Below, piece after piece: positions 1,421 to 30,614 of a DNA stretch of 49,991 nt. The notes beneath the pieces were generated by a model. The model worked only from the letters and a program-made list of their open reading frames with translations, made no database searches and had not been told where the DNA came from. This stretch comes from an uncultured Oscillospiraceae bacterium (GTDB lineage Bacteria > Bacillota > Clostridia > Christensenellales > Aristaeellaceae). The position numbers and the translations under genes were made by a program. The stretch spans positions 1 through 49,991 of the forward strand of contig CAZLYF010000002.1 of the NCBI GenBank assembly GCA_964563725.1, in the 5' to 3' direction. The number at the start of each line of letters is the position of its first letter. The first letter of the stretch is position 1.

Positions 1421-2404
1421 TCAGCCGCCCTCCGGCGCTCCCCCCGCCCTGTCCCGGCAGAAGCGCTCCAGCAGGGCGGCTTCTTTGTTGAGCGCGGGAC
1501 CGGGATACCGGGCGCGCAGCCCCTTCAGGAGCCGCAGGTTCGCGTACAGGTCGCAGGCTCGCCCGAGCCGCTCCTGCAGCTCCTGCAGCTTCGGCTGGCC
1601 GCCCTCGCCGGCGCCGCAGGCCGCGGCCAGGCAGCTCTGGACATAGCGGATCTTCTTCAAGCGGATGCGCAGCGCGTGGACGGCCTCCGGGCGCCGCGCC
1701 TTCTTTTTTCCCGCCTGCCTGACGGCCTTCCGCTTCCAGCGGCGCAGCCTCTCCGCCGCGCGCCCGTCCGGCAGGGTCCCGTCCGCGCAGGGCAGGGCGC
1801 GCACTTGGCGGCAGGTTTTTTCGACCGCCCTTTCAAGCGCTCCGCTGCGCAGGTACCGGAGGGCATCCCGCGCCGCCCGTTCGCGCTCCGCCGCGATGAC
1901 GGCGCCCAGGACGCCCGGCGGGGAGGGCAGGCCCCCCGCCGCCGCGAAGGCGTCCCGCTCCGCTAACAGGACGTCCAGCTCGCGGACAGCGGAGAAACGC
2001 GCGAGGATCCCCCTGAGCCGGGCCTGGCAGCGGCGGTATCCGCTTCTGCCCAACAGGGGCCTGCCGAAGCTCAGCAGCGCCCTTGCCCGGCGCGCCCGCA
2101 CCCTGAGCGCGTGCACGCTTTCGGCGTCCGCCGCGGCGGCCAGACAGGCTCCCGCAGCCGGCGGGACCGCGTCGAGCTCCCTGAGCAGGGCGAGCCGGAC
2201 CTGCGCGGGCGTCAGGGAAACCCAGGGCTCCCCGTCCGCCCCGCCCGGCAGCAGCGCCTGACGGATCTCCCGCGCGCCGGGCGTTCCGGCCAAAGCCTCC
2301 CGTCCGCCGCCCTTCCCTGAAGGGCTGTCTTCCTTTCCGCTGGGGACCACCTGGGATTCCCGACCTCCCGCCGATCGATGATCGAAATCCCCATAAGCAT
2401 GCAT
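1421..2404 (-). CDS. CHAD domain-containing protein
   Basis: 327-aa helical, Arg/Ala-rich protein. It has two copies of the His-Ala-Leu-Arg-x-Arg motif characteristic of CHAD domains (VHALRVRARRARALLSF and VHALRIRLKKIRYVQ). Convergent with atpD. Confidence 0.6.
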   Translation of the reverse strand: MHAYGDFDHRSAGGRESQVVPSGKEDSPSGKGGGREALAGTPGAREIRQALLPGGADGEPWVSLTPAQVRLALLRELDAVPPAAGACLAAAADAESVHALRVRARRARALLSFGRPLLGRSGYRRCQARLRGILARFSAVRELDVLLAERDAFAAAGGLPSPPGVLGAVIAAERERAARDALRYLRSGALERAVEKTCRQVRALPCADGTLPDGRAAERLRRWKRKAVRQAGKKKARRPEAVHALRIRLKKIRYVQSCLAAACGAGEGGQPKLQELQERLGRACDLYANLRLLKGLRARYPGPALNKEAALLERFCRDRAGGAPEGG

Positions 2405-2471
2405 CCTGCGCGGGACCGCGTCAAGAAGGGACGGCCCGCGACGGGGGGAGCTTCAGCCCAACGCCCGTTTT

Positions 2472-2500
2472 TTGACAGGGGTCGCGCGCCATGCTATATT
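2472..2500 (+). promoter_or_regulatory. sigma-A-type promoter candidate for the two-component operon
   Basis: TTGACA (2472-2477), 17-nt spacer, TATATT (2495-2500), about 75 nt upstream of the ATG at 2577. It is an AT-rich island in GC-rich DNA. Confidence 0.55.
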
Positions 2501-2576
2501 CCGCCTCAAGCGGGCCGCCCCGCGGGGGCCGGGGAGAAAACGGGGAGCGGCCGGAGATGAAAGCGGGGTGCGGCCG

Positions 2577-3284
2577 ATGGGAAAGGTCCTGATCGCTGAC
2601 GACCACGCGCAGATCACCTCTGTGCTCAAGGCCTACGCCGAAAAGGAAGGGCACGCCGTCGCCGTCGCCAAAGACGGCGGCGAGGCGCTGAAGCTGTATC
2701 ATTCCTTTGAGCCGGACCTGGTGCTCCTGGACGTGATGATGCCCGTCATCGATGGCTTCGAGGTCTGCCGGAGGATCCGGGAGCGCTCCGGGACGCCGGT
2801 CATCATGATCACCGCCAGGGGCGAGGACTTCGAGCGGATCATGGGGCTGGACATCGGAGCCGACGACTACATCGTCAAGCCCTTCTCCCCCGGGGAGGTC
2901 ATGGCCAGGGTCCGCGCCGTGCTGCGGAGGCTGGAAAAAAAGGAAGGCCGCGAAAGGCAGCTGCTTTCGCTGGGCAGCCTGACGGTCGACCTGGACGATT
3001 ACCGCGCTTCCGTCGGCGGGACGGACGTGCCGCTGACCAAAAAAGAACTCGATCTGCTCTGGACGCTGGCCGCAGGCAGGGGCAAGGTGTTTTCCAGGGA
3101 AAACCTCCTCAACGCCCTGTGGGGCTACGACTATTTCGGGGACACGCGCACGGTCGACTCCCACATCAAGCGCCTGCGCGCCAAGCTGGATACGCTGCCG
3201 CACCCCGACTGGGAGATCAGGACCGTCTGGGGCGTCGGGTACAAACTGGAAGCGACGCCGTCCGATGAAAACGATCGCGGGTAA
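2577..3284 (+). CDS. OmpR/PhoB-family response regulator (receiver + winged-helix)
   Basis: MGKVLIADDHAQI...LVLLDVMMPVIDGFEVCRRIR...ITARGEDFERIMGLDIGADDYIVKPFSPGEVMARV is a receiver domain. C-terminal LTKKELDLLWTLA...TRTVDSHIKRLRAKL...IRTVWGVGYKL is the OmpR-type DNA-binding domain. Confidence 0.9.
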   Translation: MGKVLIADDHAQITSVLKAYAEKEGHAVAVAKDGGEALKLYHSFEPDLVLLDVMMPVIDGFEVCRRIRERSGTPVIMITARGEDFERIMGLDIGADDYIVKPFSPGEVMARVRAVLRRLEKKEGRERQLLSLGSLTVDLDDYRASVGGTDVPLTKKELDLLWTLAAGRGKVFSRENLLNALWGYDYFGDTRTVDSHIKRLRAKLDTLPHPDWEIRTVWGVGYKLEATPSDENDRG

Positions 3285-4740
3285 GCTGGCGCTGTCCCTC
3301 TCCCTCGCGCTGCTGGCGCTGTCGGTGGCGGTCGGCCTGACGTTCTCGGCGCTGTTTCGCCAGTACACCGTGAAAAAGGCCAGGGAAGACCTGTCGCAGA
3401 AGGCGGACCTGATCCTTTCGGCCCTTTCGGCGGACGCGTCCGGCGGCCCTCCCATGGGTCCCGGGGCGCGGGGCCGCGCGGGGGACGCGGCGGGCAGCGC
3501 CGGGCGGATGGCCTGGTACAGCCGTTACCTGGATGCCCTGAGCGAGCAGGCGGACACGGACGCCTGGCTGGTAGACGAGGAACTGCAGCTCATCACCGGG
3601 AACATGCGGAGCCTCACCTACGGCGACCTCCCGCCGGGGGCAGAGGAGGTCGTGCGGGAGGTGTTCCGGGGCGAAACCGTGTTCAGCAGCGGCTTTGGCG
3701 CCTTGACCGGCGAGCCTTCCCTGACGGCTGGCGTCCCTGTCTACACGGCCGGCCAGGTCACGGGCGCGCTGCTGCTGCACGCCCCCCTCGAGGGCCTCAA
3801 CGAGGCGCAGCGGGAGGGCGTGCGTATCCTCCTCATCAGCATCGGGGCGGGGCTGGCCCTGTCGATCCTCCTGTCGCTGCTGACGGGGCGGATGACCACC
3901 GGGCCGCTCAAGAGGATTCGCCGGGCGTCGCTCCTGATCGCCGGGGGCGACTACGCGGCCAGGAGCGGGGTGCGCAGGGGGGACGAGATCGGGGAGCTGG
4001 CCGAGGCGATCGACACGCTCGGGGAAAGGCTGGACGAGGCGCAGCGCGAGCACGAGACGACCGAAAAGCTGCGGCGCGAGTTCATGGCCAACGTCAGCCA
4101 CGAGCTCAAGACGCCCGTCACGGTGATCCGCGGCTCCCTCGAAGCGCTCAGCGACGAGGTGGTCACCTCCCCGCAGGAGGTGAAGGAGTACTACCGGCAG
4201 ATGCTCAGCGAGACCAGCGTCCTTGAGCGGCTCATCAGCGACCAGCTGGACCTGAGCAAGCTGCAGAACCCGGACTTCCAGATGGAGATGCAGGACAACA
4301 ACCTCTGCGACGTCCTGAGCGACGCGGTGCGCAGCGCGCGCCAACTGGCGCAGGCAAAGGAGATCGCCCTCTTCCTGCGGCTCGACCGGGAACATTTCCC
4401 GTTCCGAGGCGATTACAGCCGCCTGAGGCAGATGTTCATGATCGTACTCAACAACGCCGTGAAATACTCCTTCCGCGGCGGGGAGATCGACGTGACGCTT
4501 CAGGGGAGCGCGGTGACCGTCAGGGACCGGGGGATCGGCATCTCTCCCGAGGACCAGGCCCACCTGTTCGAGCGCTTTTTCCGCGTGAGCGCCCACGGGA
4601 ACGCCGAAGGCTCCGGACTGGGCCTCGCCATCGCCAGGCAGATCGCCCGCAGACACCGGGTCGATATCAGCCTCAGCAGCGCGCCCGGCGAGGGGACGGA
4701 GGTGCGCTTCGTTTTTCCGCAGGGGAGCGCCCCATCCTGA
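3265..4740 (+). CDS. Sensor histidine kinase (TM-sensor-TM-HAMP-HisKA-HATPase)
   Basis: N-terminal TM helix (LALSLSLALLALSVAVGLTF) and a second TM (ILLISIGAGLALSILLSLL). H-box FMANVSHELKTPVTVIRGSLEAL, N-box VLNNAVKYS, G-boxes DRGIGI and GSGLGLAIARQIARRH. Overlaps the regulator gene by 20 nt. Confidence 0.9.
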   Translation: MKTIAGKLALSLSLALLALSVAVGLTFSALFRQYTVKKAREDLSQKADLILSALSADASGGPPMGPGARGRAGDAAGSAGRMAWYSRYLDALSEQADTDAWLVDEELQLITGNMRSLTYGDLPPGAEEVVREVFRGETVFSSGFGALTGEPSLTAGVPVYTAGQVTGALLLHAPLEGLNEAQREGVRILLISIGAGLALSILLSLLTGRMTTGPLKRIRRASLLIAGGDYAARSGVRRGDEIGELAEAIDTLGERLDEAQREHETTEKLRREFMANVSHELKTPVTVIRGSLEALSDEVVTSPQEVKEYYRQMLSETSVLERLISDQLDLSKLQNPDFQMEMQDNNLCDVLSDAVRSARQLAQAKEIALFLRLDREHFPFRGDYSRLRQMFMIVLNNAVKYSFRGGEIDVTLQGSAVTVRDRGIGISPEDQAHLFERFFRVSAHGNAEGSGLGLAIARQIARRHRVDISLSSAPGEGTEVRFVFPQGSAPS

Positions 4741-4781
4741 AACAGGGCGGCGCCTGCCCGGGCGCGGACCGGAGGAGAGCG

Positions 4782-5402
4782 ATGGAGGGCGGAGCCCGCC
4801 GCGGCGGCCCGGGAGGGGCGCTGTCCTTGCAGGAGGAAAAGCTCAGGGCCTTCAGCGAAGCGGCCCGAAGGATGAACGGCGAAGGCCTCAGGTGGTGCGC
4901 CGGGGCGTCCTTCATGCTGGACCGCCTGGGCATCCTCCCCGGCTTCAACGACGTCGACCTGGTCGTCGCGCGGGAGGATTTCGGCCGCGCGGACGCGATC
5001 CTCGCCTCGCTGGGGGAGCGGCAGCCGCCCAAGCCCCCGGACAGCCGGGTGGCGTCGGAACGCTTTTCCGAGTTCTCCCTCGGAGGGATCGAGGCGGACC
5101 TTTTCTGCGGCTTCACCGTCCGCTGCGGCGGCTTCGCGTACCGCTACGTTTTCGACGAGGCATCCCTGGCGGGCGGGACCTTCCTGCACGGCGCGCGGAT
5201 CCCGCTCGCCGCGCCGGAGGACTGGCTCGTCCTGTATCTGCTGATGCCCGGCAGAAGAGAGAAGGCGCGCGCCGTCTCAAGGTGGCTCCGGGCGGAGGGG
5301 ATCGGGCGGCCGGAGCTCCTTGAGCGCGCGAAGGGACAGCCGCTCCCGGACGCGGTGGCCAGGCGGATCGACAGCCTGCTCGCGCGGGCGCGGCGCCCGT
5401 GA
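4782..5402 (+). CDS. Putative nucleotidyltransferase-fold protein
   Basis: GGAGGAG RBS about 5 nt upstream of the ATG. The motif WCAGASFMLDRLGILPGFNDVDLVVAREDF resembles the G-S...D-x-D core of minimal nucleotidyltransferases. Function not resolved. Confidence 0.45.
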   Translation: MEGGARRGGPGGALSLQEEKLRAFSEAARRMNGEGLRWCAGASFMLDRLGILPGFNDVDLVVAREDFGRADAILASLGERQPPKPPDSRVASERFSEFSLGGIEADLFCGFTVRCGGFAYRYVFDEASLAGGTFLHGARIPLAAPEDWLVLYLLMPGRREKARAVSRWLRAEGIGRPELLERAKGQPLPDAVARRIDSLLARARRP

Positions 5403-5498
5403 GGGGCCGCGCCGGGCACCGGCGGCTTGCCCGCGGGCGAGGGTTCTGGTAGGATGGGCGCAAAGGGAACAGGGGCGCCTCAGAGGAGGGAAAGCAGC

Positions 5499-20354: not shown

Positions 20355-21562
20355 ACGCGGTCATGTACGGCGCCGGGAACATCGGCCGGGGCTTTGTGGG
20401 CGCCCTGTTCAGCCAGTCCGGCTACAGGGTGACCTTCATCGATGTGGCGAAGGCGGTGGTGGAGCGTCTGCACCTCAGCGGCCGCTATCCCGTGCGGATC
20501 GTGTCGGACGAAGGCAACCGGGACATGGAGATCACGGGCGTGGACGCCGTCGACGGAGGTGATCCCGAGGCGGCCGCGCAGGCGATCGCGGAGGCAGACA
20601 TCATGGCGACCGCGGTGGGCGTCAAGGCCCTGCCGCTGATCATGCCCAACCTCGTCTCCGGCCTCCGCCGGCGCTTCGCGCTCGGGCGGCCGCCGCTGAA
20701 CATCCTCCTGTGCGAGAACCTGAACGACGTGCACAAGGTGGTCGAAGGGCTTCTGAGGGAGCGGATGACGGCGGAGGAAGCGCGGCTGCTCAATGACAGG
20801 GTCGGCCTGGTGGAGGCCTCCATCGGCCGGATGGTCCCCGTGCAGACGCCCGAGATGCAGGACGGCGATCCCCTGCGCGTCTGCGTGGAGGCGTACGGCT
20901 TCCTGCCCGTGGACCGCGCCGCCTTCAGGGGCGGGATCCCGTCCGTCAGGAACATGATCCCCTTTTCTCCCTTTGATTTCTACGTCAAGCGCAAACTCTT
21001 CCTCCACAACATGGGTCACGCCGCCTGCGCGTATCTGGGGCTGTACACAGGCAGGCGCTACATCTGGGAGGCGGTCGGGGACCCCCTCATCGAGCTGGCC
21101 GCCCAGAACGCGATGCAGGAAAGCGCTGTCGCGCTTTCGAAGAAATACGGCGTGCCCCTGCCCGATCTGCTCGATCACGCGCAGGACCTGCTCGGCCGTT
21201 TCGGCAACAGCGCGCTCAAGGACACCTGCGCCCGCGTCGCCGCCGATCCCGGCCGCAAGCTGGCCGCTTCCGACAGGCTCACGGGCGCCGCGCGGCTGTG
21301 TCTCCAGACCGGCGTCACGCCGGCCTTCATCTCCCTCGCCGCCGCCGGCGCGGTCCGCCTCTACCTGGAGGAGACGGGCCGGGAGCAGACGGGGGAAGGC
21401 GCGGCGCGCGCGCTGCGGGAGTTGTCGGAGCTCTCCCCCGGGGACGAACCGGGCGCGATGATCCTCGGCATGCACGGACTGCTCGCCGCCCGCCGGCCGC
21501 CGGAGGATCTGTACAGGGCGGCCAAGAAGCTCAGGCTGTCCCGCCTGGGTGAGATCATCTAG
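20351..21562 (+). CDS. Mannitol-1-phosphate 5-dehydrogenase-family enzyme (long-chain polyol-phosphate dehydrogenase)
   Basis: The start overlaps the aldolase stop (ATGA). MNAVMYGAGNIGRGFVGALFSQSGYRVTFIDV matches the MtlD N-terminus (FGAGNIGRGF). An HNMGHA block lies further along. Confidence 0.75.
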   Translation: MNAVMYGAGNIGRGFVGALFSQSGYRVTFIDVAKAVVERLHLSGRYPVRIVSDEGNRDMEITGVDAVDGGDPEAAAQAIAEADIMATAVGVKALPLIMPNLVSGLRRRFALGRPPLNILLCENLNDVHKVVEGLLRERMTAEEARLLNDRVGLVEASIGRMVPVQTPEMQDGDPLRVCVEAYGFLPVDRAAFRGGIPSVRNMIPFSPFDFYVKRKLFLHNMGHAACAYLGLYTGRRYIWEAVGDPLIELAAQNAMQESAVALSKKYGVPLPDLLDHAQDLLGRFGNSALKDTCARVAADPGRKLAASDRLTGAARLCLQTGVTPAFISLAAAGAVRLYLEETGREQTGEGAARALRELSELSPGDEPGAMILGMHGLLAARRPPEDLYRAAKKLRLSRLGEII

Positions 21563-21578
21563 CGCCATCCGGCGCCTG

Positions 21579-21608
21579 TTGACACCAGTTTACCCTTTTC
21601 GATACAAT
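21579..21608 (+). promoter_or_regulatory. Near-consensus sigma-A promoter of the SPFH/ESCRT-III/Vps4/TIR operon
   Basis: TTGACA (21579-21584), 18-nt spacer, TACAAT (21603-21608), 40 nt upstream of the ATG at 21648. It follows a small hairpin, GCGCC-atcc-GGCGC (21562-21575), at the end of the sugar operon. Confidence 0.65.
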
Positions 21609-21647
21609 ACCGTTCAGCCGGTGTCGCCGTCCGTCACGAACACGAGG

Positions 21648-22670
21648 ATGCATCCAGTGAACAGCGGAAATAGGGTCACGGTCAGCGAAGAGGGGGACTT
21701 CCTGGTCTGGAGGCACCCGGATACGGCGTTTTCAAAGGACGCGGTGCTGAGGGTGCCGGCGGGATATGAGGTGATCATCGAACGCAACAACGTCCTGTCG
21801 GACGTCTACCGCGAGGGGAGCACGGTTTATCCGGGCAGGCGGGAGGGCGGCTTTGGGCTTGCCCTCCGGGAAAAACCCGCGGTGCGCGTTTATTTCTTCA
21901 GGAAGCTGCCCGGCAGGCCGCAGCGCTGGGGCGTGGGCGGCATCCGCTTTTCTGACAGGAACACGAATGAAACCGGACGCCTGGGCGCCCTGGGCACGTA
22001 CAGCGTCGTTCCGGTCAGCGCGAAAAAACTCCTGCGGCACGCGATGGGCTTCGGCGGACAGCTCGTATCCAGGGAAATCGCCTCCTGTCTTGAGCCGGAC
22101 ATCATCAGGACGGTCAGGACCGAAATCGCCAGGCTGGTTCAGGACGGGGGGATGGCCTCCCTGGGCGGGCGCCTTGACGGCGCCGCCGAAGCGATCAAGG
22201 AGGCCCTGCAGCCAAAGTTCGAGGAGTACGGGATTCGGATCGAGTCGTTCCAGATCCTGAATGTCGAGATCATGGACCGGGATGGCGAACGCGCCGCGGC
22301 GCGGGGCGACCCCGCTCCCCCGGACACAGGGGGAGGCTTTCCCGGAAAGGAAGGTCAGGAAGAGGAAATGATCGCAAGCAAACGGATCGGCGAGAGAAAC
22401 ATCGAGTCCCGCAATGAGACGGCCAACCTGTTCACCAAAGCCGGCGAGCGCGTGAAGCCGCGCGGATACAAGGAAAGGCTGCTGAAGCTGGAAGGGGAGC
22501 TGATGCTCAGCGAGAGCGCTGACAGGGACGCCGTCCGATTCGACATGGAGCTCAGGACCCTGCTGGCCGAATTTCCCAGGGTCGTCGAGGAAGGGATCGA
22601 GACCATCGCCGAACGCTATCTGGAGCGGATGCGCTACCTGATCGGGAAAAGGAACGGGGAGCCGGGCTGA
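21648..22670 (+). CDS. SPFH-domain protein of the YdjI / 'virion core protein-like' type, with a helical C-terminal extension
   Basis: EGDFLVWRHPDTAFSKDAVLRVPAGYEVIIERNNVLSDVYREGSTVYPG matches the beta-rich N-terminal signature of YdjI-type SPFH proteins. KFEEYGIRIESFQILNVEIMD is a typical SPFH domain end. About 90 extra charged/helical residues follow. GTG at 21657 is an alternative start. Confidence 0.7.
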   Translation: MHPVNSGNRVTVSEEGDFLVWRHPDTAFSKDAVLRVPAGYEVIIERNNVLSDVYREGSTVYPGRREGGFGLALREKPAVRVYFFRKLPGRPQRWGVGGIRFSDRNTNETGRLGALGTYSVVPVSAKKLLRHAMGFGGQLVSREIASCLEPDIIRTVRTEIARLVQDGGMASLGGRLDGAAEAIKEALQPKFEEYGIRIESFQILNVEIMDRDGERAAARGDPAPPDTGGGFPGKEGQEEEMIASKRIGERNIESRNETANLFTKAGERVKPRGYKERLLKLEGELMLSESADRDAVRFDMELRTLLAEFPRVVEEGIETIAERYLERMRYLIGKRNGEPG

Positions 22671-22728
22671 ACAGGGGCTTCGCAGCCCGGCGCGTCAATG
22701 ACTGCGGCTGAAGGAGCGATTCAGGCAT

Positions 22729-23442
22729 ATGACAGGGAACAAGGGTTTTTTCGGAAAGCTGTTTAGCCGCGGGAGGCCGCAGGAAGAGCTGTCCGCGGAC
22801 GAGTGCAGAGCCCGCCTGTTCAGGCTGAACAACAAGCTTGACGAGGAAAATGATAAGCTCAGGAAGGCGGAGAAGGAGCTTGAAGAGCTGAAAACCGAAG
22901 CCGTCAGGCTCAAGACGGGCGGCGCCGGGAGCGCGAGCGGGAACGCGCGCTACGAGCTGGTCAAAACCAGGGCCGAGGGCGTGATGGCAACCATCACAAG
23001 CCATACCGGCAGCGTCAGCCTGCTGATGCGCGAGATCAGAAACCTCAGCGACTATGCCACGGCAAAGGGGATGAAGCAGATCGTCGACCTGATCGGGCAG
23101 TCGAGGCTTCCCGACACGGAGACGCTGTGGGACGAGCTTGACCAGGCCGTCATCGCGCGGGAAGCGCTGGTGGAAGGACAGAAAAGCGTCAGGTCGCTGC
23201 TCGACGAGGCGCTGAAGGACGCGACGGCCGAAACGGGCGGCCGGGAGAAAACGGAATTCGACAGGCTCGTCGATCGGGAAGTGGCGGCCATGAACAATAT
23301 CGCCGACATCACCGGGGAGCGTCCAGCCGCAACCGAGGCAGGGCCTGAAACGGAAACCAGCGGACCGCAGAACGGGAAGAAGGGTCCTGAAGAAGATAAA
23401 GCCGAACCGGCCGCACAGGCGGATCCCGATCGCGGCAAGTGA
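22729..23442 (+). CDS. ESCRT-III superfamily (Snf7/PspA-like) coiled-coil protein, paralogue 1
   Basis: 237 aa. N-terminal amphipathic GFFGKLFSRG is like MGLFGK/MGLFDRL of CHMP/Vipp1. It is followed by a long helical hairpin (RLFRLNNKLDEENDKLRKAEKELEELKTEAVRLK ... ARYELVKTRAEGVMATITSHTGSVSLLMREIRNL), shorter helices, and an acidic Thr/Pro-rich tail. AAGGAG RBS 12 nt upstream. Confidence 0.6.
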   Translation: MTGNKGFFGKLFSRGRPQEELSADECRARLFRLNNKLDEENDKLRKAEKELEELKTEAVRLKTGGAGSASGNARYELVKTRAEGVMATITSHTGSVSLLMREIRNLSDYATAKGMKQIVDLIGQSRLPDTETLWDELDQAVIAREALVEGQKSVRSLLDEALKDATAETGGREKTEFDRLVDREVAAMNNIADITGERPAATEAGPETETSGPQNGKKGPEEDKAEPAAQADPDRGK

Positions 23443-23473
23443 ACGCAGCCAGGTGAGCGGAGGGGTGAACTGC

Positions 23474-24118
23474 ATGTTTTTCAAGTCGGCTGCCCGGAAG
23501 GCACAGGAAAACAAGGCGATGATCAGGCAGAACCTGCGGGAACTGACGCGCTGGGTAGCGGCCCTGGAAAAGAAAAAGGCGAGCATGATCGAGAGCGCCC
23601 GCACAGCCAGGGCGCAGGGGCTGACCTCGCAGTACAATTTCGCCTTCAACGCGCTGAAGATGCTCATCAACCATCAGAAGCGGGCGCGCGCGATGAAGCT
23701 GCAGGTGGAGATGGTGGAAAACCTGCGCGACCTGAGCAATATGAGCTCAGACTTTTTCAGGCTGTTTGGAAAGGTCGGCAAGGAAGTGTCGGACGCGGCC
23801 AGGAACATGAACTATTCCAAAAACCTCGCCTCCTTCGAGACGGGGATGACCGCGGTCGACCAGACGCTCGCGCAGCTGCAGGACTTCATGGACGAAGCCC
23901 AGATGACCTATGAGGAGATGCCCGGGATGGACGAGGAATCGGGCGTCGACGACGAGATCAGGCAGCTGATCGACGTGACCGGCGCCATGAAGCTCGACGA
24001 CAAGGACCAGGTGCCGCATACCGCGCAGAGAGCCGGGGCCGGGCTGGAGGACGCGGCGCTCGACGAAGACATCGAGCGGCGCCTGCAGGAGATCCGCGGC
24101 AGGCGCGCCAACCCCTGA
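23474..24118 (+). CDS. ESCRT-III (Snf7/CHMP-like) protein, paralogue 2, with C-terminal MIM1 motif
   Basis: ATG at 23474 lies 8 nt after GGAGGGG; GTG at 23453 is the alternative. 214 aa. MFFKSAARKAQENKAMIRQNLRELTRWVAALEKKKASMIESARTARAQG...FAFNALKMLINHQKRARAMKLQVEMVENLRDLSNMSSDFFRLFGKVGKEV...TLAQLQDFMDEA follows the alpha1-alpha5 layout of CHMP proteins. An acidic linker follows, and the last helix DEDIERRLQEIR fits MIM1 (D/E)xxLxxRLxxL(K/R). Confidence 0.7.
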   Translation: MFFKSAARKAQENKAMIRQNLRELTRWVAALEKKKASMIESARTARAQGLTSQYNFAFNALKMLINHQKRARAMKLQVEMVENLRDLSNMSSDFFRLFGKVGKEVSDAARNMNYSKNLASFETGMTAVDQTLAQLQDFMDEAQMTYEEMPGMDEESGVDDEIRQLIDVTGAMKLDDKDQVPHTAQRAGAGLEDAALDEDIERRLQEIRGRRANP

Positions 24119-24254
24119 ACGGGAAAGCCCCGCGGCCGCGGCGTCAGGGCGCTTCAAAACGCGGGGCAGGCGGCGGACAGGAGCCGCTCCCGCCCGCAGG
24201 CGGCGGGCCTGAAGGCGTTCGGACGGCGGACGGAGTCAAGGGAGAGGTGACAGG

Positions 24255-25427
24255 ATGACAGGCCCGGCCAGCGAATCCCTGATCGAAGTATTCAACAGCT
24301 ACTACAGCACCGCCAAGCAGAAGGAAAAAGAGGGGCGCTGGGGGCAGGCCGCCAGGCTGTACCGGTATGCCGCGGAAACGATGCTCCATATCGCCAGGGC
24401 TTCGGACGGAGAAACCAGGAAAGCGCAGATCTCGCGCGCCGACAGGCTGACGCAGCTTTCGGACGCGCTGGAACAAAAGGAAAAAGAGGGGACGGAAGGC
24501 AAAAACCCCGCCTCGGGGGCTCAGCCGAAGACGAACAACCCTGGTCAAAGGGGCGACGCGGACCCGGGCACGCAGTGGGAGGCCGAACCTGTCCCGGCAG
24601 TTTCGTTTGAGGACGTGGCGGGCCTAGGCGAGGTCAAGCGCATCGTGACTGAACGGATCATCGATCCGATGAGGCATCCCGACCTGTACCGGCAGGTCGG
24701 ATTGAAGTTCAATACGGGCGTCCTGATGTTCGGGCCGCCCGGCACGGGCAAGACGACCATCGCCAAAGCCATTGCGCACGAGGTCAACGCGTCGTTTTTT
24801 CTGGTGCAGTGCGACAAGGTCCTGTCAAAGTGGTATGGAGAATCGGAAAAGATCGTCCACGAACTGTTCGCAGCCGCCCGCAAACAGCAGACCGCCGTGA
24901 TTTTTTTCGACGACTTTGACGGGATCGGCAGGACGCGCGACGGCAGCCACGAGGCCTCCAGCCGCATCATCACCCAGCTGCTGGTGGAGATGCAGGGTTT
25001 CAGCGAAGACGATACCACCATCCTGCTGCTTGCCGCCACGAACCGGCCCTGGGACATCGACAGCGCCTTTACCCGGGCGGGCCGTTTTTCCTCGATGGTC
25101 TATGTCCCGCTCCCGGACGAGGAGACGAGGCTGTTTCTGCTGAAGCTGCAGTTCAAGGGCGTGCAGCTGGCGGAGGACATCGGCATGAAGGCGTATGCCG
25201 CGCGCCTCCGCGGCAGAAACGGCGCCGACATCGTGGAATTCTGCACCGCCGCCAAGCACAGCGCAGTGAAGCGGGCGAGGGCCGCGCGAAAAGACCTGGT
25301 GACCCTCTGCGGGCAGGATTTTGAGGAAGCCATGGCGACCACGCGCTCCACGGTGCGCAGTGATTCGCTGGAAAAGCTGCACGCGTTCATGAGGCGGGAA
25401 GGGTACCCGATTCCCGACGAGATGTAG
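24255..25427 (+). CDS. Vps4-like AAA+ ATPase with N-terminal MIT-like domain
   Basis: The N-terminal ~80 aa (YSTAKQKEKEGRWGQAARLYRYAAETMLHIARASDGETRKAQISRADRLTQLSDALEQKEKEG) parallels the Vps4 MIT three-helix bundle. Walker A GPPGTGKT (24732-24755). Pore loop 1 LSKWYGESEKIV is almost identical to Vps4 SKWLGESEKLV. Walker B VIFFDDFD. SRH LLAATNRPWDIDSAFTRAGRF...VYVPLPDEETR. Confidence 0.8.
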   Translation: MTGPASESLIEVFNSYYSTAKQKEKEGRWGQAARLYRYAAETMLHIARASDGETRKAQISRADRLTQLSDALEQKEKEGTEGKNPASGAQPKTNNPGQRGDADPGTQWEAEPVPAVSFEDVAGLGEVKRIVTERIIDPMRHPDLYRQVGLKFNTGVLMFGPPGTGKTTIAKAIAHEVNASFFLVQCDKVLSKWYGESEKIVHELFAAARKQQTAVIFFDDFDGIGRTRDGSHEASSRIITQLLVEMQGFSEDDTTILLLAATNRPWDIDSAFTRAGRFSSMVYVPLPDEETRLFLLKLQFKGVQLAEDIGMKAYAARLRGRNGADIVEFCTAAKHSAVKRARAARKDLVTLCGQDFEEAMATTRSTVRSDSLEKLHAFMRREGYPIPDEM

Positions 25428-25453
25428 CCTGGCGCTGGCGGAAGGGCGGACAA

Positions 25454-26791
25454 ATGCGGATGCAGAGGATCAAGTGCCGGGAGTGCGGCGGCTATATCAC
25501 CGACGTCGACCCGGACAGCCTGGTGGTCCGTTGCGGGAATATCGGGTGCGGGGCGGTGCAGCTGCTCATGGACGACCGGACGCTGCCCGTCGGGGAGGGC
25601 GACCGCGAACAGACGGTGGCAAAGCTCCTGTCGTCCGCGGGGGACAGCCTTGACAACTGGCGCTTTTCCCAGGCGGCCCGCGCTGCCTCTGAGGTCCTCC
25701 TGCTCGATCCCGGGCACTTCCTTGCAAACTTTTATCTCCTGTTCGCGCAGCGCGGGGAAAGCGGCGCGGATCCGCGGGACTACGAAAGCTTTCTGAAGGA
25801 GAAACACGACGCGCCGCCCGAGCAGCTGCGGACCGCCGCGGGCCATGCCCTGTCCGGTTTCCGCCTCAGGGAGGCAAACGCCCTCGGCGTCTTCATCGAC
25901 CAGTCCTTTTCGGGATGGGACCGCGACACGCTGCGCCTGCGCCTGAAGGAACTGGCCGCCCTAAGGATCCTGCAGGAGGAGAACTATGCCCTGATCCCGC
26001 GGGACGTGTTCATCTGCCTTCAGAGCGACGACCTGCCGGTCGCGGAAAAAATCTGCGACATGCTGACCGGCGACGGCATTTCATGCTGGATCTACACGCG
26101 CAACATGCCTCCCCACTGTTCCCGGTACGGAGAGGTCATCAGGTACGCGATCGGCGCCTGCAAGGTGTTTCTTGTGGTCGCGTCGTACGCGTCCATGCAC
26201 CTGAGCGAAGACGTCAAGGAAGAGATCCGCATCGCCTCGGGCCTGAACTGCGCGCGCCTGGAATTCAAGGTCGACGGCACGGAGCACACGGGGCTTTTCA
26301 GTCATTTTTTCAAGGGGATCACCTGGATCGAAGGGCAGGAGCGGGCCGATTCCCAATTTGAGAGGCTCAAGGAGGCGGTCAGGAGGGAGCTTTTCGCTTC
26401 ACAGGAAGCCGCCCCCCGCCAGGCGCCTCCGCCCGCGCTGTTTTTGCATGAAACGGACCGCGGGCACGACGTGGTCCGCGTCGACGAATCCGGGTCGGAG
26501 CTGGGAAGGCCGAAAAAAAACCTTGACCACCCCCACGCCTTCCTGAGCGTGTATATGAAGGTCAGCGGTACGCAATGCCGTTTCCTGTATCACGACGGGC
26601 TGTGGCACGTGGCCGACGCGGGCTCGAAGAACGGGACTTTTCTCAAGGGGCTTGACGGGAGCTGCCGACGCCTTGAGCCGCAGGCTGAAAACCGGCTCGC
26701 CGACGGGATGATCCTCAACCTCGCGGGGCAGATCTCCTTCAGGGTCCGGTACGCGAAAGCGGGAGAAACGCCGGCGGAGGGAAAAACGTGA
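25454..26791 (+). CDS. Zn-ribbon / TPR-like / TIR / FHA multidomain protein
   Basis: CRECGG...VRCGNIGCG zinc ribbon (aa 8-32). TPR-like AGDSLDNWRFSQAARAASEVLLLDPGHFLANFYLLFAQ. TIR block DVFICLQSDDLPVAEKICDMLTGDGISCWIYTRNM...YAIGACKVFLVVASYASMHLSEDVKEEIRIA (aa ~183-300). C-terminal FHA block ELGRPKK...VSGTQCRFLYHDGLWHVADAGSKNGTFLKG...LADGMILNLAGQISFRV (aa ~335-433). Confidence 0.75.
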   Translation: MRMQRIKCRECGGYITDVDPDSLVVRCGNIGCGAVQLLMDDRTLPVGEGDREQTVAKLLSSAGDSLDNWRFSQAARAASEVLLLDPGHFLANFYLLFAQRGESGADPRDYESFLKEKHDAPPEQLRTAAGHALSGFRLREANALGVFIDQSFSGWDRDTLRLRLKELAALRILQEENYALIPRDVFICLQSDDLPVAEKICDMLTGDGISCWIYTRNMPPHCSRYGEVIRYAIGACKVFLVVASYASMHLSEDVKEEIRIASGLNCARLEFKVDGTEHTGLFSHFFKGITWIEGQERADSQFERLKEAVRRELFASQEAAPRQAPPPALFLHETDRGHDVVRVDESGSELGRPKKNLDHPHAFLSVYMKVSGTQCRFLYHDGLWHVADAGSKNGTFLKGLDGSCRRLEPQAENRLADGMILNLAGQISFRVRYAKAGETPAEGKT

Positions 26792-27528
26792 TCAAGGTCC
26801 ATGCCGTCGTCGACATCGGATGCGTCCGGGAGAAAAATGACGACCGCGCGCTTGTGGGCGGAACAGTCCTCGGCGAGGGGGCCCGCAGCGCGGAGTTTGA
26901 GGACGGCGTCCTGATCTGCGTGGCGGACGGCGTCGGCGGAAGCGGCGGCGGCGGCCTCGCCGCCGAGGCCGCCCTGAAGGCCCTGGGCAGCGCGCCCCTT
27001 CCGGCAGGCAGGAGAGAGATCGAAGCGCTGCTGCAGTCAGCCAACGATGCGGTGCTTGCGCTTCAGCGCAGCGCCGCCGCCCTGTCCCAGGCGGCGACGA
27101 CCGTGGCCGGCGTTGTGCTCAGGGACGAAGGCTGCATGGTTTTTCACGCGGGGGACAGCCGCGTGTACAGGATCCGCCGCTCCCGCCTTTCCTGCCTTAC
27201 GGTGGACGACAGCCTTGTGCTCAGGCTGGCGCCGGGAGGCCTGATGCCCCGGGACGCAGCGGCGTCCCCCCGCGGAGGCATCACGCGCTGGGTGGGCCGA
27301 AGCGAAGGCTTCGAGGCAGAAATCGCGGAAGAGACGGGAGGGTTCTATCAGGGGGACGTCCTGCTGCTGTGTTCCGACGGGCTTTACGCGGAGCTTAAGG
27401 AACCCCTGCTGGAAAAAGCCCTGGCGGAGGAGAGGGACGGCGAAGCGCTCTGCCGCGGCCTCGTGGACAGGGCAAGGGCACTGGGCGGCAGGGACAATAT
27501 CACCGCGATCGTTGCCGTGAAGGAGTGA
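26788..27528 (+). CDS. PP2C-family Ser/Thr protein phosphatase
   Basis: The GTG start overlaps the upstream stop (GTGA). REKNDDRALV, ICVADGVGGSGGGGLAAEAA, TTVAGVVL...MVFHAGDSRVYRI, LLLCSDGLY and GGRDNITAIVAVK are the conserved PPM motifs with the metal-binding Asp residues. Confidence 0.9.
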   Translation: MIKVHAVVDIGCVREKNDDRALVGGTVLGEGARSAEFEDGVLICVADGVGGSGGGGLAAEAALKALGSAPLPAGRREIEALLQSANDAVLALQRSAAALSQAATTVAGVVLRDEGCMVFHAGDSRVYRIRRSRLSCLTVDDSLVLRLAPGGLMPRDAAASPRGGITRWVGRSEGFEAEIAEETGGFYQGDVLLLCSDGLYAELKEPLLEKALAEERDGEALCRGLVDRARALGGRDNITAIVAVKE

Positions 27529-27533
27529 GGGCT

Positions 27534-29636
27534 ATGGAAGCGACCCGCCTGGAGGGCATCAGTCCAGAGTACCGCGAGAAGCCGCCCGAGTATGAAGGGC
27601 TGGATTTTTCCGGCATCAGGGTCGAAGGGCTTGTCGACGAGGGGGAAACGAGCTACTTCCTGCTGGAGGAGCAGCTGAAGAAGGACGCTGTCGGGAACCA
27701 GTCGATCCTGTACGTCTGCCGCAGGTGCACAAAGGAAAACGAAGCGGCCGGAACAGAGAAATTCATCGCGAAAGTGTATTACAACTGCGTCAACATCGAC
27801 GACAACGCGCAAATGAAGATACGCCGCTTCCTGCATTCCCCCGAGGCAAGGCAGAACCATATCCTTCCGCAGGTCAATCACGGATACATCAACAAGTCGT
27901 TCTACTGCGAGATCTACCCGTTCTGCCCGGACGGCGACCTGAGCCGCGCGCGGTATTCCTACGAGGAACTGCTTGCCGAGGTGCTGCCGCAGCTCAACGC
28001 CGCCCTGCGGACGATCGCCCAGGCGGGCATCGTGCACAGGGACATCAAGCCGGCCAACATCTATCGGACAGGGAAAGAGCTCTTCGTCGCGGACTTTGGC
28101 ATCGCGACGCTCTCGGACAATGCGTACACGGTGCGCGCCCGGGGAACGCCCACCTATACGGCGCCGGAGATCGCCCTGGGCTTCACATCGGAAAAGACAG
28201 ACTACTATTCGCTGGGGGTCACGCTGTGCGATCTGTACAAGGGGGAACCGCTGTTCAAGGAGATGAGCGACGCCGAAGCGCTGCGCTGCATTTCCAGAAG
28301 GGAACTGCCCCTCTCCTTTGCGCCCGGGCATGAACCGCTCAAGAGGCTCATCGAAAGCCTGCTCCAGTACGAGGACAAGCGCAGCGGCTTTCAGCAGGTC
28401 GAGGAGTTCCTGCGCAGCCCGAAGGATTTTGTTCCCGTCATTGACGCGGGAGCCAGTCAGATCAACTATGTTTTTGCGGGTACGCATTACAGGACCTGCG
28501 ACTCCCTGTCCCAGGGGCTCGTCAGCAAGTGGGACGAAGCGAAAAACCATCTGTTCACGCGCACGCTGAAGACCTATTTCGATCAGGTCCAGATGGATAT
28601 CGGCGCCAGTGCGGGAAGGGTCGTTGACGATGCGGACAAGGCCATCAGGCAGGTCGAGGCCAATGAGAGCCTTTCCGCCGCGGAGAAGGAGCGCCTGACG
28701 TCCCTGCTTGAAGACGCGGCCCTGATGTACTTTCTCAGGACGCTTTCCGCTTCGTACTGGCTGGGATGGCGCGGCAGGAAATACAACGGGCTGTGCGATA
28801 TCGCCGACAGGCTCTTAGAAGGGGACAGCGACGCGGCTGCGCTGTTTGACAGGCAGATCCTCCAGCAATGGGTCGGAGCCTTTGTCGGGAGGGACACGGA
28901 GGAACGCGCAGCGCTCGCAAAAGCCGTTCTCCTGTCGTCACTGAACGATGCCTGCGCGAAAAAGCTGTTTATACTGAGCTTTTCGTCAAGGGCGGAGGAC
29001 CGGGAACTGACTTGGGACGGCCGCCGCTTCCCGACAATGGACAGCCTTTTTGAAGCCCTGACGAGAAACGCGCAGACTTTCTATTCGAATTACGAAGCGC
29101 TGATGGTTTCCGGCGATTTCGTGGCCTTTTTCTGCAGGGCGCTCCCTCTGGAAAGCCTCGGCGCCACGTATGCCGAGGCGACTGACGCGCAGCTGACAAA
29201 AAAGGACAGGTTCAGGCTGCTTTTAAAGATCTTCGAGGCAACGGTCAGCAGGCCCTCTGACGTGCGCAGTTTCTATCTGAACTACGGCGACAATGCGGAC
29301 GCGGTTTGGGTCATTCGGAACCTGCTGAAGCTTTACGCCTTTGAAGGGGAGAAGGCAGGCGCCCTGTTCAGGAAGATCCAGGGGCTGCGGCTGCCTGATC
29401 CGCGGGAAGAGGACCTTGCCTCCTTATGCCGGGCCCTCGACGGGTTTCATGCGGTCGTGGAGGAATTGAGGCGCCTCCTGAAGGACAATTTCTTCCTGTC
29501 CTATATCGGCCAGTCCGGCGGAGCAAGTGAGGACGGGGTCTTCGCGCGTACAAGCGGAGCTTTTTTCGTGTATGAATTCTGGGACAGGCCTGCGCCGGCG
29601 TCGCTGCTGCATCACATGAATGTGAAACAGTCTTGA
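27534..29636 (+). CDS. Hanks-type Ser/Thr protein kinase with ~400-aa C-terminal repeat-containing domain
   Basis: ATG at 27534 lies 9 nt after AAGGAG; GTG at 27525, overlapping the PP2C stop, is the alternative. Lys motif FIAKVYY, catalytic loop HRDIKPANI (HRD at 28035-28043), DFGIAT, GTPTYTAPE, DYYSLGVTLCDL. No TM segment or PASTA repeats. The C-terminal half has three degenerate repeats. Confidence 0.85.
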   Translation: MEATRLEGISPEYREKPPEYEGLDFSGIRVEGLVDEGETSYFLLEEQLKKDAVGNQSILYVCRRCTKENEAAGTEKFIAKVYYNCVNIDDNAQMKIRRFLHSPEARQNHILPQVNHGYINKSFYCEIYPFCPDGDLSRARYSYEELLAEVLPQLNAALRTIAQAGIVHRDIKPANIYRTGKELFVADFGIATLSDNAYTVRARGTPTYTAPEIALGFTSEKTDYYSLGVTLCDLYKGEPLFKEMSDAEALRCISRRELPLSFAPGHEPLKRLIESLLQYEDKRSGFQQVEEFLRSPKDFVPVIDAGASQINYVFAGTHYRTCDSLSQGLVSKWDEAKNHLFTRTLKTYFDQVQMDIGASAGRVVDDADKAIRQVEANESLSAAEKERLTSLLEDAALMYFLRTLSASYWLGWRGRKYNGLCDIADRLLEGDSDAAALFDRQILQQWVGAFVGRDTEERAALAKAVLLSSLNDACAKKLFILSFSSRAEDRELTWDGRRFPTMDSLFEALTRNAQTFYSNYEALMVSGDFVAFFCRALPLESLGATYAEATDAQLTKKDRFRLLLKIFEATVSRPSDVRSFYLNYGDNADAVWVIRNLLKLYAFEGEKAGALFRKIQGLRLPDPREEDLASLCRALDGFHAVVEELRRLLKDNFFLSYIGQSGGASEDGVFARTSGAFFVYEFWDRPAPASLLHHMNVKQS

Positions 29637-29648
29637 GGGTAGGGCGGC

Positions 29649-30614
29649 ATGAATACGAAGCTGATTGAAACGCAATACCGCGAAGCGGAAAGGAAACTGA
29701 CGGAAACCAGGTCCCTGAACATCCGGCAGCTTGGACTGCTTGGCGCCGGGGCGCGCGGGCTGTTCCTCCTCCGCTTTCTGGAAGAGACCTTCTGCTATTT
29801 TGCCATAGCCTACCTGGCGCTGCATCTGGCAGGCCGGCTCCTTCCGGAACTGCCCTTCAAAGCGCCCTTCCCGATCGACTACGGCAATCAGGCGAGGGGG
29901 GTCCGGGTCGAAATCATCATCGCCTACGCTTCGCTGTGCGTCCATTTCGTGTTTCTCGCCATTTCCGCGCACCGGCACCTGAGCTTCGACCTCAGGCACC
30001 GGTCGCTGAAAAAGGCGCTGTCAAAATCCATCCAGGCCATCGACAAGAAACTGCAGGAACTGCCGGAACTGAAAAAAAGCTTCATCCGCGCCGTGTCTGC
30101 GAATGAAACCATCAACATACCCGTGGAAGCGAGGGACAGGCGCCTTCAGGAGATCATCGTCGGCCCGGACCAGCTGCAGAGAAAGACCTCCGCCGCCGCC
30201 GACCGGCTCGCCGGCTTCTTTCTGTGGATATCCGTCGCCTTTTTCTCGTATGTGTACACGCGGCTTCAGTACAGGTCATTCGCGAACGAGTATCTGTCCG
30301 CGATCAACCCAATGGGCAACGACGCCATGCCCGCTTTTCATATTTTCATCCAGTTCATCGCGGTCGTCCTGTGCCGCTACGCGTACAGCTGCGTCGGGGA
30401 GCGCGCAAGCGTCCTGCGCGCGTTGACGGGCTTCCTCACCATCCCCGTCGCCATGGCGCTTTTCGCGGGCATTCTCTGGGCGCTGAAGGCTGCGGCGGAA
30501 GGCGGCACGCCCTTGAAACTCGCCCTGTCCGCGGGGGCGCTGCTCGCTGTCGTCCTCCTGACGGCCAGGGCAAGGTCCCGCAGAAACGCGCAGGCGCGGG
30601 AGAAGAAACCCTGA
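29649..30614 (+). CDS. Polytopic membrane protein, unknown family (last gene of the operon)
   Basis: 321 aa, starting 12 nt after the kinase stop. Hydrophobic segments FCYFAIAYLALHLAG, IIIAYASLCVHFVFLAISA, LAGFFLWISVAFFSYVY, AFHIFIQFIAVVLCRYAY, GFLTIPVAMALFAGILWAL and LALSAGALLAVVLLTA. A charged soluble loop spans aa ~115-185. Confidence 0.7.
   Translation: MNTKLIETQYREAERKLTETRSLNIRQLGLLGAGARGLFLLRFLEETFCYFAIAYLALHLAGRLLPELPFKAPFPIDYGNQARGVRVEIIIAYASLCVHFVFLAISAHRHLSFDLRHRSLKKALSKSIQAIDKKLQELPELKKSFIRAVSANETINIPVEARDRRLQEIIVGPDQLQRKTSAAADRLAGFFLWISVAFFSYVYTRLQYRSFANEYLSAINPMGNDAMPAFHIFIQFIAVVLCRYAYSCVGERASVLRALTGFLTIPVAMALFAGILWALKAAAEGGTPLKLALSAGALLAVVLLTARARSRRNAQAREKKP

Follow-up and report, generated by a model that had tools for sequence, protein, structure and literature searches.

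A zinc-ribbon/helical/TIR/FHA fusion protein encoded with a PP2C phosphatase and a Ser/Thr kinase in an uncultured Oscillospiraceae bacterium, a candidate for phosphothreonine-gated TIR activity

Positions 1 to 49,991 of contig CAZLYF010000002.1 (assembly GCA_964563725.1), analyzed here as a whole and referred to below as the window, originate from an uncultured Oscillospiraceae bacterium with a G+C content of about 65% and contain a gene at 25454-26791 for a protein combining a zinc ribbon, a helical domain, a TIR domain and an FHA domain. The gene is followed directly by those for a PP2C-type phosphatase and a Hanks-type Ser/Thr kinase. In the reading that we favor, with a probability of roughly 0.55, this TIR-FHA protein would be a soluble effector-adaptor, in which kinase-driven docking of the FHA domain on phosphothreonine clusters the TIR domains and leads to NAD+ cleavage. 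Phosphothreonine gating of the TIR domain is a well-motivated inference from the domain architecture and the gene order, and its biological role could be abortive defense or a membrane-stress response. TIR domains are common death and signaling enzymes of bacterial, plant and animal immunity, and for each TIR system the question is what draws these domains together to switch them on. [quoted passage not shown] A TIR domain wired to a phosphothreonine reader and to its own kinase and phosphatase would add reversible protein phosphorylation to this list.

The gene starts with ATG, about 8 nucleotides downstream of a Shine-Dalgarno-like GGAAGGG, and its product is predicted to be soluble, with no membrane segments in a hydropathy scan. 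At its 3' end the gene shares 4 nucleotides with the PP2C gene, its stop codon running into the GTG start codon of the latter, and the start of the kinase gene overlaps the PP2C stop codon by another 4; the three genes are thus translationally coupled. The original prediction, made from the sequence alone, had noted the overlap with the PP2C start and the kinase gene next to it. The identical protein with the same neighbors was found in two independent assemblies (SRR8925735 and SRR8925742); hence, it is not an assembly chimera. The modules were delimited by profile searches and by an AlphaFold2 model computed with an alignment of 68 relatives of about 28% identity (A1), while a TIR-only alignment (A5) was used for this domain. 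The gene and its parts are as follows.

25454-26791, forward strand: gene for the zinc-ribbon/helical/TIR/FHA protein (open reading frame with ATG start, 445 residues)
25466-25564, forward strand: Cys4 zinc ribbon, approximately residues 5-37 (C8, C11, C27, C32), from Cys conservation, profile matches and the model
25595-25987, forward strand: all-alpha domain of seven helices, residues 48-178 (AlphaFold2 with A1; predicted local distance difference test score, pLDDT, >90)
26000-26407, forward strand: TIR domain, residues 183-318 (Pfam TIR_2 and fold match)
26222-26224, forward strand: codon of Glu257, the candidate catalytic glutamate (invariant in A1 and A5)
26435-26761, forward strand: FHA domain, approximately residues 328-436 (Pfam FHA and alignment with five related FHA domains)

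The four modules named in the original prediction are all present, and its residue numbers (C8, C11, C27 and C32; E257 at nucleotides 26222-26224; G351-R352; S371; S391-K-N393-G-T) are correct. Two details are amended. The label "TPR-like" for the helical domain is unproven, no TPR profile match having been found for this protein, and the second knuckle of the ribbon, whose four cysteines had been correctly recognized, reads CxxxxC (C27-GNIG-C32), not CxxxC. The four cysteines are at least 90% conserved in the 68 relatives, the family profile also picks up RpoP and zinc-ribbon proteins of known structure, and the ribbon is modeled as two beta-hairpins with pLDDT of 77-91 (10-residue block means). 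The model is confident over residues 1-330, while the one computed from the single sequence was unusable (pLDDT 37.6).

Profile matches to both effector and reader domains, which the original prediction had called for, exceed the Pfam gathering thresholds. The TIR_2 profile (PF13676) matches residues 185-304 with E=4.2e-8 and 34.2 bits against a cut-off of 28, covering 120 of its 122 positions; it also matches all 68 relatives, nine of which match the ThsB_TIR model as well. The TIR region is modeled with pLDDT >90, and Foldseek retrieved the TIR structures of MyD88, MAL, Hydra TRR-2, SARM1 and SPARTA (best E=5.9e-5), with target-normalized TM-scores of 0.73-0.82 for isolated TIR-domain chains, pointing to the flavodoxin-like TIR fold. 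In sequence searches with both the family profile and the A5 profile the best match among solved structures was to SPARTA TIR-APAZ chains (E=3e-5 with A5), followed by PdTIR, MyD88, Cat1, AbTir and TcpB/BtpA. Glu257, which had been proposed as the catalytic residue, is indeed present in a proper alignment: it lies at the conserved position after strand C, is invariant in the 68 relatives and pairs with Glu77 of SPARTA TIR-APAZ in four orthologues and in all SPARTA alignments listed. The E77A substitution abolishes the NADase activity of SPARTA (Koopal et al., PMC9097488). By these criteria, the TIR domain of the protein looks catalytically competent.

The Pfam FHA profile (PF00498) matches residues 367-423 (E=1e-6, 29.5 bits against a cut-off of 20.7) over profile positions 15-66 only; the GR motif thus lies outside the match. 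The GR of the protein, followed by a 4-residue insertion, aligns with that of five related FHA proteins, and both GR and S-x-N-G-T are conserved across the six FHA domains of the kinase cassettes described below. These signatures, together with an SxxH site reading SGTQ, are as the original prediction had them. The residues that contact phosphothreonine, R352, S371, S391 and N393, are all there, in alignment with the related domains. The SxxH site is S371-G-T-Q374, where Gln374 aligns with the His of 1uht and of the five related domains; the latter have V-G-N-x-H, with His kept and Gly in place of Ser, versus V-S-G-T-Q here. Among solved structures, the FHA region gave weak matches to 1uht and OdhI.

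The enzymes that could write and erase the phosphothreonine mark, and a membrane protein, are encoded immediately downstream.

26788-27528, forward strand: PP2C-type Ser/Thr phosphatase (Pfam PP2C_2; NCBIfam Stp1/IreP family, E=5e-40)
27525-29636, forward strand: soluble Hanks-type Ser/Thr kinase, 703 residues (Pfam Pkinase; motifs FIAK83V, HRD, DFG and TAPE)
29649-30614, forward strand: multi-pass membrane protein with a long cytoplasmic loop, 321 residues (Kyte-Doolittle scan)

Judging from its motifs, the kinase is apparently active; it has no membrane segment and ends in a domain of about 400 residues with no assigned function. Its full-length homologues are always found in cassettes of PP2C, kinase and membrane protein that include an FHA protein as well, and the FHA/PP2C/kinase triad recurs in loci L017-L022. 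The 321-residue membrane protein is the positional counterpart of membrane proteins of 300-343 residues that follow the kinase in the related loci; no sequence match to these counterparts was found. The closest related loci come from Oscillospiraceae or other Clostridia. In the closest of them, L017, the kinase is 36-40% identical and the phosphatase matches with E=1e-52. A metagenome scan with the kinase alignment yielded generic kinase-domain matches only.

Loci L018 (2341-13305), L019 (4787-13084), L020 (2497-13170), L021 and L022 (365-11333) share a conserved and apparently undescribed nine-gene operon. Its 5' part encodes a CrtO-like membrane protein, an uncharacterized protein of about 270-330 residues, another of about 500 residues, an FHA protein and a small radical-SAM-like Fer4_12 protein, and its 3' part a ClpB/ClpV-like AAA_2 ATPase, PP2C, the kinase, and finally an approximately 300-residue multi-pass membrane protein. 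The C-terminal domain of this kinase is the same as that of the kinase in the window. In L019, the upstream part differs and there is no CrtO-like match; zinc-ribbon motifs in the FHA protein were confirmed only in L018.

With these components, phospho-gating could proceed as follows. First, a trigger would reach the kinase via its C-terminal domain, the adjoining membrane protein, or both. Second, the kinase would phosphorylate threonines of a partner, which might be the kinase itself, the membrane protein, or helical ESCRT-III/PspA-like subunits encoded upstream. Third, the FHA domain would dock on these marks and concentrate the TIR-FHA protein, and the concentrated TIR domains would self-associate to form an active site; oligomerization is described as a general need of TIR activation (10.1101/2023.09.23.559129). 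Glu257 would then catalyze cleavage of NAD+, resulting either in its depletion or in a nucleotide signal. Finally, the PP2C phosphatase and the MIT-AAA ATPase encoded upstream may reset the system.

The same parts could also be wired in the opposite sense. GarA and OdhI are known for autoinhibition, and in a similar arrangement the kinase would mark a linker threonine of the TIR-FHA protein itself, for instance in HETD near residue 333, and the FHA domain would bind it intramolecularly and hold the TIR domain off until dephosphorylation by PP2C, or loss of kinase activity in stress or infection, set it free. The linker between the TIR and FHA domains is about 40 residues long, contains threonines, is modeled with low confidence and is probably disordered; a single polypeptide permits self-binding, and OdhI is among the weak structure matches of the FHA region. 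However, there are no orthologues in which a conserved acceptor motif could be shown, and the FHA protein of the related cassettes has no effector to inhibit; we regard this wiring as unlikely.

The provenance of the protein was clarified by its relatives. With the full-length sequence as a query, a word-indexed search through 5.8 billion proteins returned only the protein itself, and the same search with the family profile returned at least 15 proteins. A phmmer search run exhaustively against 1.84 billion cluster representatives gave 302 matches with E<1e-10, 47 of them with E<1e-30. All of the 150 best phmmer matches listed, with lengths from 254 to 2031 residues, are restricted to query residues 1 to about 346, and the family matches reach E=9e-47 over residues 1-328. 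Residues F186, W212, I229, E257 and A261 are invariant in the 68 aligned relatives, and the protein keeps the family signature, namely, four cysteines and R-D-x-F ... W ... E ... A, in a collinear ribbon, helical and TIR arrangement. Residues 1-320 thus make it a collinear member of an unnamed zinc-ribbon/helical/TIR family, which the sources designate only by labels of the "RpoP" type. The closest relatives are about 35% identical over these residues, have the odd second knuckle C-x4-C-G-A in common, and run on into beta-rich repeats followed by a multi-pass membrane region. More generally, the C-terminal regions of the 68 relatives contain DUF6273, Sel1, BspA-type leucine-rich repeat, Ig-like, Flg_new, DUF5050, SH3, fn3 or TM2 domains, and, according to the hydropathy scan, 103 of the 150 best relatives have membrane segments C-terminal to this module. 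Family members are either short or end in membrane segments and extracellular-type repeats, whereas the protein studied here ends in an FHA domain. As far as can be read from these alignments, the family consists of a constant ribbon, helical and TIR module and a swappable C-terminal region, the latter probably being a sensor or an anchor.

Several observations concern this family in its own right. In P0002, P0003 and similar proteins, which are the closest relatives in the family, a beta-rich repeat of some 70 residues occurs three or four times between the TIR domain and the C-terminal multi-pass membrane region; its pattern, V.Y.D..G..L.....L..G.H.I.P....VP.GY, has no Pfam match. A conserved operon lies upstream of, or beside, the genes of one clade of the family in L016 (12907-17238), L023 (934-5135), L024 (1527-5738), L025 and L026, with the order HTH_31, trypsin-like protease, Band_7_1, a coiled-coil protein of 318 residues, another of 176 residues (starting with MFGRSRRKNK), a 239-residue protein with eight membrane segments and a 94-residue protein with two; one or two TIR family proteins are often encoded 3' of it. 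The suggestion that every family member adjoins a Band_7_1 operon is ruled out by L032, which lacks one; therefore, the link between SPFH/helical genes and the zinc-ribbon/TIR module is recurrent but not universal. Furthermore, L016 contains a Pkinase/vWA/PP2C triad (2199-5468) upstream of two zinc-ribbon/TIR genes, from which it is separated by two short minus-strand genes. This triad adjoins a DUF4011 helicase gene, the arrangement is also found in a second contig, and it hints at a wider association of kinases with TIR proteins. PADLOC recognized no known defense system in two related conserved operons, the Band_7_1 operon just described among them.

The C-terminal part of the protein has a different affiliation. 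In L017, PP2C, the kinase and a multi-pass membrane protein are immediately preceded by a gene whose product, truncated by the end of the contig, has a CPLC half-ribbon at its start, a helical part weakly collinear with the helical domain of the TIR family (BLAST E=0.03, profile E=0.002, both single comparisons), no TIR domain, and a terminal FHA domain 40% identical to the one studied here. Since residues 1-320 belong to the TIR family and the FHA domain is so close to that of a TIR-less protein, the TIR-FHA protein is, on sequence grounds, a chimera of two separate conserved systems, a zinc-ribbon/helical/TIR module and the FHA slot of a kinase cassette. Gain of the TIR domain in this protein and its loss in L017 would both fit. 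The FHA/PP2C/kinase/membrane-protein cassette occurs elsewhere without a TIR domain; conversely, no FHA domain was found in the 150 best relatives listed from the library of 1.84 billion representatives, and in A1 only the query has one. The relatives examined, drawn from some 15 billion proteins, included no other TIR-FHA fusion, and the literature searched yielded neither such a fusion nor a bacterial TIR domain gated by a kinase. This agrees with the original prediction, which knew of no such control logic in described TIR defense systems such as Thoeris or TIR-STING.

Such rarity could also mean that the fusion is a recent, lineage-specific event with no selected function, or that the gene is decaying. 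A singleton among some 15 billion proteins, a substituted FHA histidine and a nearest cassette with no TIR domain would all be expected of an evolutionary accident. Nevertheless, the open reading frame is intact at 445 codons, the other key residues of both domains are kept, the ribosome-binding site and the 4-nucleotide coupling to PP2C are preserved, and two samples yielded one and the same sequence; this makes an accident extremely improbable.

The gene is the fifth in an operon of eight genes on the same strand, which overlap or are separated by short gaps, with no convincing internal terminator, in the order SPFH, E3a, E3b, AAA ATPase, TIR-FHA, PP2C, kinase and multi-pass membrane protein. 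The features upstream are as follows.

21549-22670, forward strand: SPFH/Band_7_1 protein of the YdjI-type family (Pfam Band_7_1, 37.4 bits against a cut-off of 24)
21579-21608, forward strand: sigma-70-like promoter candidate TTGACA-18-TACAAT with 11 of 12 consensus matches (consensus scan, pattern match only)
22729-23442, forward strand: helical protein E3a, 237 residues (translation; no profile match)
23453-24118, forward strand: helical protein E3b, 221 residues, candidate ESCRT-III/PspA-like subunit (MIM1-like tail)
24255-25427, forward strand: single-cassette AAA ATPase with an MIT-like N-terminus and Vps4/CdvC architecture (Pfam AAA, E=3e-39)

The site at 21579-21608 is probably the promoter of the operon, and, as it lies inside the longest open reading frame of the SPFH gene, the real start of the latter is probably the ATG at 21648. 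The G+C content of the operon region (22000-30000) is 0.595-0.648, compared with about 0.64-0.68 in the adjacent flanks and up to 0.71 further out, and AT skew is marked at 22-24 kb (0.30); both may reflect Lys/Glu-rich helical proteins or a foreign origin.

The upstream genes look like an ESCRT-III/Vps4-type or a PspA/SPFH-type module. E3b carries a MIM1-like motif, DEDIERRLQEIR (nucleotides 24062-24097), six residues from its C-terminus. This is the sole match to the pattern [DE]xx[LIVM]xxRLxx[LIVM][KR] in the 57,596 residues of all open reading frames of the window, the MIM1 consensus being (D/E)xxLxxRLxxL(K/R). The N-terminus of E3a, GFFGKLFSRGRPQEEL, resembles the ESCRT-III helix alpha-0, by eye only. 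In the ATPase, the MIT (E=0.014) and Vps4_C (E=0.002) matches are below the Pfam thresholds; the archaeal CdvC model of NCBIfam aligns end to end (E=9e-55), far below its equivalog cut-off, and among solved structures the AAA cassette is closer to p97/Cdc48 D2 than to Vps4. No Snf7, PspA_IM30 or other profile in Pfam, NCBIfam or PADLOC matched E3a or E3b, and no ESCRT-III chain was retrieved for them from the PDB either by phmmer or with a profile of eight positional counterparts. Taken together, the MIM1-like tail of E3b and the MIT-like ATPase suggest an ESCRT-III/Vps4-like couple, as a candidate only. A survey of phage shock protein systems reported bacterial Vps4-like ATPases as well as PspA paired with band-7 and zinc-ribbon proteins in Firmicutes (PMC11237479).

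Full-length relatives of the ATPase in GTDB species genomes were found only in two metagenome-assembled genomes, one of Oscillospiraceae and one of Clostridia, at loci L003 (1105-6816) and L005 (3464-13995). There the MIT-AAA ATPase is encoded with small helical proteins and a DO-GTPase2 protein, and neither locus has a TIR domain or a kinase; L005 contains two tandem ATPase copies and a zinc-ribbon protein. Pairwise BLAST of E3a and E3b against their counterparts in these loci gave only E=0.33 and 1.1. Acquisition of the ATPase from gut methanogens was rejected, as the archaeal loci L004, L006 and L007 match the AAA cassette only and this cassette is nearest to Cdc48 D2.

A bolder interpretation is that the eight genes form a true bacterial ESCRT-III/Vps4-type polymer machine whose FHA reader carries a TIR NADase, with the phosphorylated polymer clustering the TIR domains. 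It would comprise an SPFH platform, two ESCRT-III-like subunits, of which one has a MIM1 tail, an MIT-AAA ATPase for disassembly, and kinase/PP2C/FHA control as in archaeal ESCRT systems; the polymer, phosphorylated at a damaged or phage-attacked membrane, would template TIR firing, which the ATPase and the phosphatase would bring to an end. We consider this doubtful, but if true, it would be a new way of activating a TIR domain.

The same genes can be read without a toxin. In this alternative, the protein would be a phospho-adaptor of an ESCRT-III/PspA-type machine for membrane remodeling or repair, and its TIR domain a non-catalytic self-association module nucleating assembly at phosphorylated sites. 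The operon includes an SPFH protein, helical proteins with a MIM1-like tail and an MIT-like AAA ATPase, the FHA protein of the closest related cassette (L017) has no TIR domain, and no receptor for a TIR-made signal was recognized in the operon. Archaeal ESCRT loci likewise contain kinase, phosphatase, FHA and SPFH genes with no toxin (Makarova et al., 2024; PMC11188069). The top Foldseek matches, to the filament-forming TIR domains of MyD88 and MAL, also conform to such a role. On the other hand, a strictly invariant Glu257 at the NADase catalytic position is hard to explain for a pure scaffold, and the best sequence matches are the enzymatic TIR domains of SPARTA, PdTIR, Cat1 and AbTir; a scaffold therefore appears rather improbable.

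Several points weigh against the phospho-gated NADase that we prefer. The MyD88 and MAL domains just mentioned are non-enzymatic. The residue four positions before E257 is Asp, where AbTir and SARM1 have Trp; SPARTA, which has Gly four residues before Glu77, is active without that Trp as well, and the Asp is therefore not disqualifying. In the FHA domain, the structural His is replaced by Gln374, and the model is unreliable, with pLDDT <50 over most of the domain (10-residue block means of 28-63), because A1 has no homologues over this region. The fusion is a singleton (one species, two identical contigs), so selection on the fused state is not measurable. The protein matches no PADLOC defense model, and the lack of a recognized receptor counts here too. 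Finally, the operon is flanked by sugar-metabolism genes and by MarR, flavin reductase and DegV genes; location in a defense island or a mobile element is ruled out by these housekeeping flanks.

The lack of a recognized receptor also weighs against a role of the TIR domain as a generator of a messenger, a cyclic ADP-ribose isomer or a related molecule, in place of NAD+ depletion, the messenger being sensed by the SPFH protein, the membrane protein or the kinase's C-terminal domain. Thoeris-type TIR domains act as messenger generators and provide a precedent, nine of the 68 relatives match ThsB_TIR, and several operon proteins are without an assigned function. However, neither Pfam nor PADLOC recognized SLOG, Macro, SAVED, SIR2 or STING-like domains in the operon, and the protein itself has no PADLOC match to ThsB, which makes this role very unlikely.

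For phospho-gating of the TIR domain, the protein with its kinase and PP2C would give a simple three-protein test system. Apart from this, the analysis exposed three uncharacterized conserved systems: the large zinc-ribbon/TIR family, many members of which have predicted membrane segments and extracellular-type repeats; the FHA/AAA/PP2C/kinase/membrane-protein cassette; and the bacterial MIT-AAA loci with MIM1-tailed helical proteins, which bear on the existence of ESCRT-like machines in bacteria.

Among known systems, SPARTA provides the closest TIR domain, and the TIR module, a member of the TIR_2 superfamily, would work most like SPARTA-type NADases: TIR-APAZ is the best solved-structure sequence match, its Glu77 corresponds to E257, and both lack Trp at position -4. 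In SPARTA and, as proposed, in the system described here, a fused or partner sensor brings TIR effector domains together. However, SPARTA has APAZ and a short Argonaute, whereas the TIR-FHA protein has no APAZ, its operon encodes no Argonaute, and only the TIR regions align; the N-terminal zinc ribbon and helical domain have no equivalent in TIR-APAZ. The input is guide-target nucleic acid in SPARTA and would be phosphothreonine binding here. Thoeris ThsB is likewise a bacterial TIR protein with a conserved Glu, but Thoeris includes ThsA (SIR2 or Macro/SLOG) and no ThsA-like protein is encoded in the operon, while the fused FHA and zinc-ribbon modules and the kinase and phosphatase partners set the TIR-FHA protein apart from ThsB.

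Regarding regulation, the threonine phosphorylation pathway of type VI secretion consists of the PpkA kinase, the PppA PP2C phosphatase and Fha1, with the ClpV AAA ATPase disassembling the polymer. In both cases, a Hanks-type kinase, a PP2C phosphatase and an FHA adaptor are encoded together with an AAA+ ATPase. The likeness to ClpV applies to L018-L022 with their ClpB/ClpV-type AAA_2 ATPase, while the ATPase of the window is of the MIT-AAA type; moreover, the operon of the window contains no secretion-system genes, and its FHA adaptor carries a TIR domain. In archaeal ESCRT loci of the "Main" and "Halo_FHA" clades, a Vps4-type ATPase and ESCRT-III are encoded with a Ser/Thr kinase, a phosphatase and an FHA protein, and in one clade with SPFH (PMC11188069). 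The FHA domain is fused there to a CdvA-like domain and here to TIR, and the helical proteins of the window are ESCRT-III candidates only. The Bacillus subtilis pspA-ydjGH operon with its band-7 gene shows a thematic likeness, in that band-7/SPFH, helical membrane-remodeling and zinc-ribbon proteins are combined (PMC11237479), Band_7_1 also occurring in TIR family operons as it does in that of the window; the B. subtilis system further includes a TPM-domain membrane protein, and no PspA_IM30 profile match was found in the window. YdjG itself combines a pair of ribbons with an NTF2-like domain and a membrane segment (PMC11237479), and the parallel with it, drawn in the original prediction, is a thematic analogy only. 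FHA domains fused to other effectors are known from conflict systems, for example, PIN-FHA (PMC7159879). Thus, the parts of the system and the sensor-driven clustering of TIR domains are already known, the phosphothreonine input would be new, and the control logic would most resemble that of the archaeal ESCRT loci and of type VI secretion with its FHA/PP2C/kinase switch.

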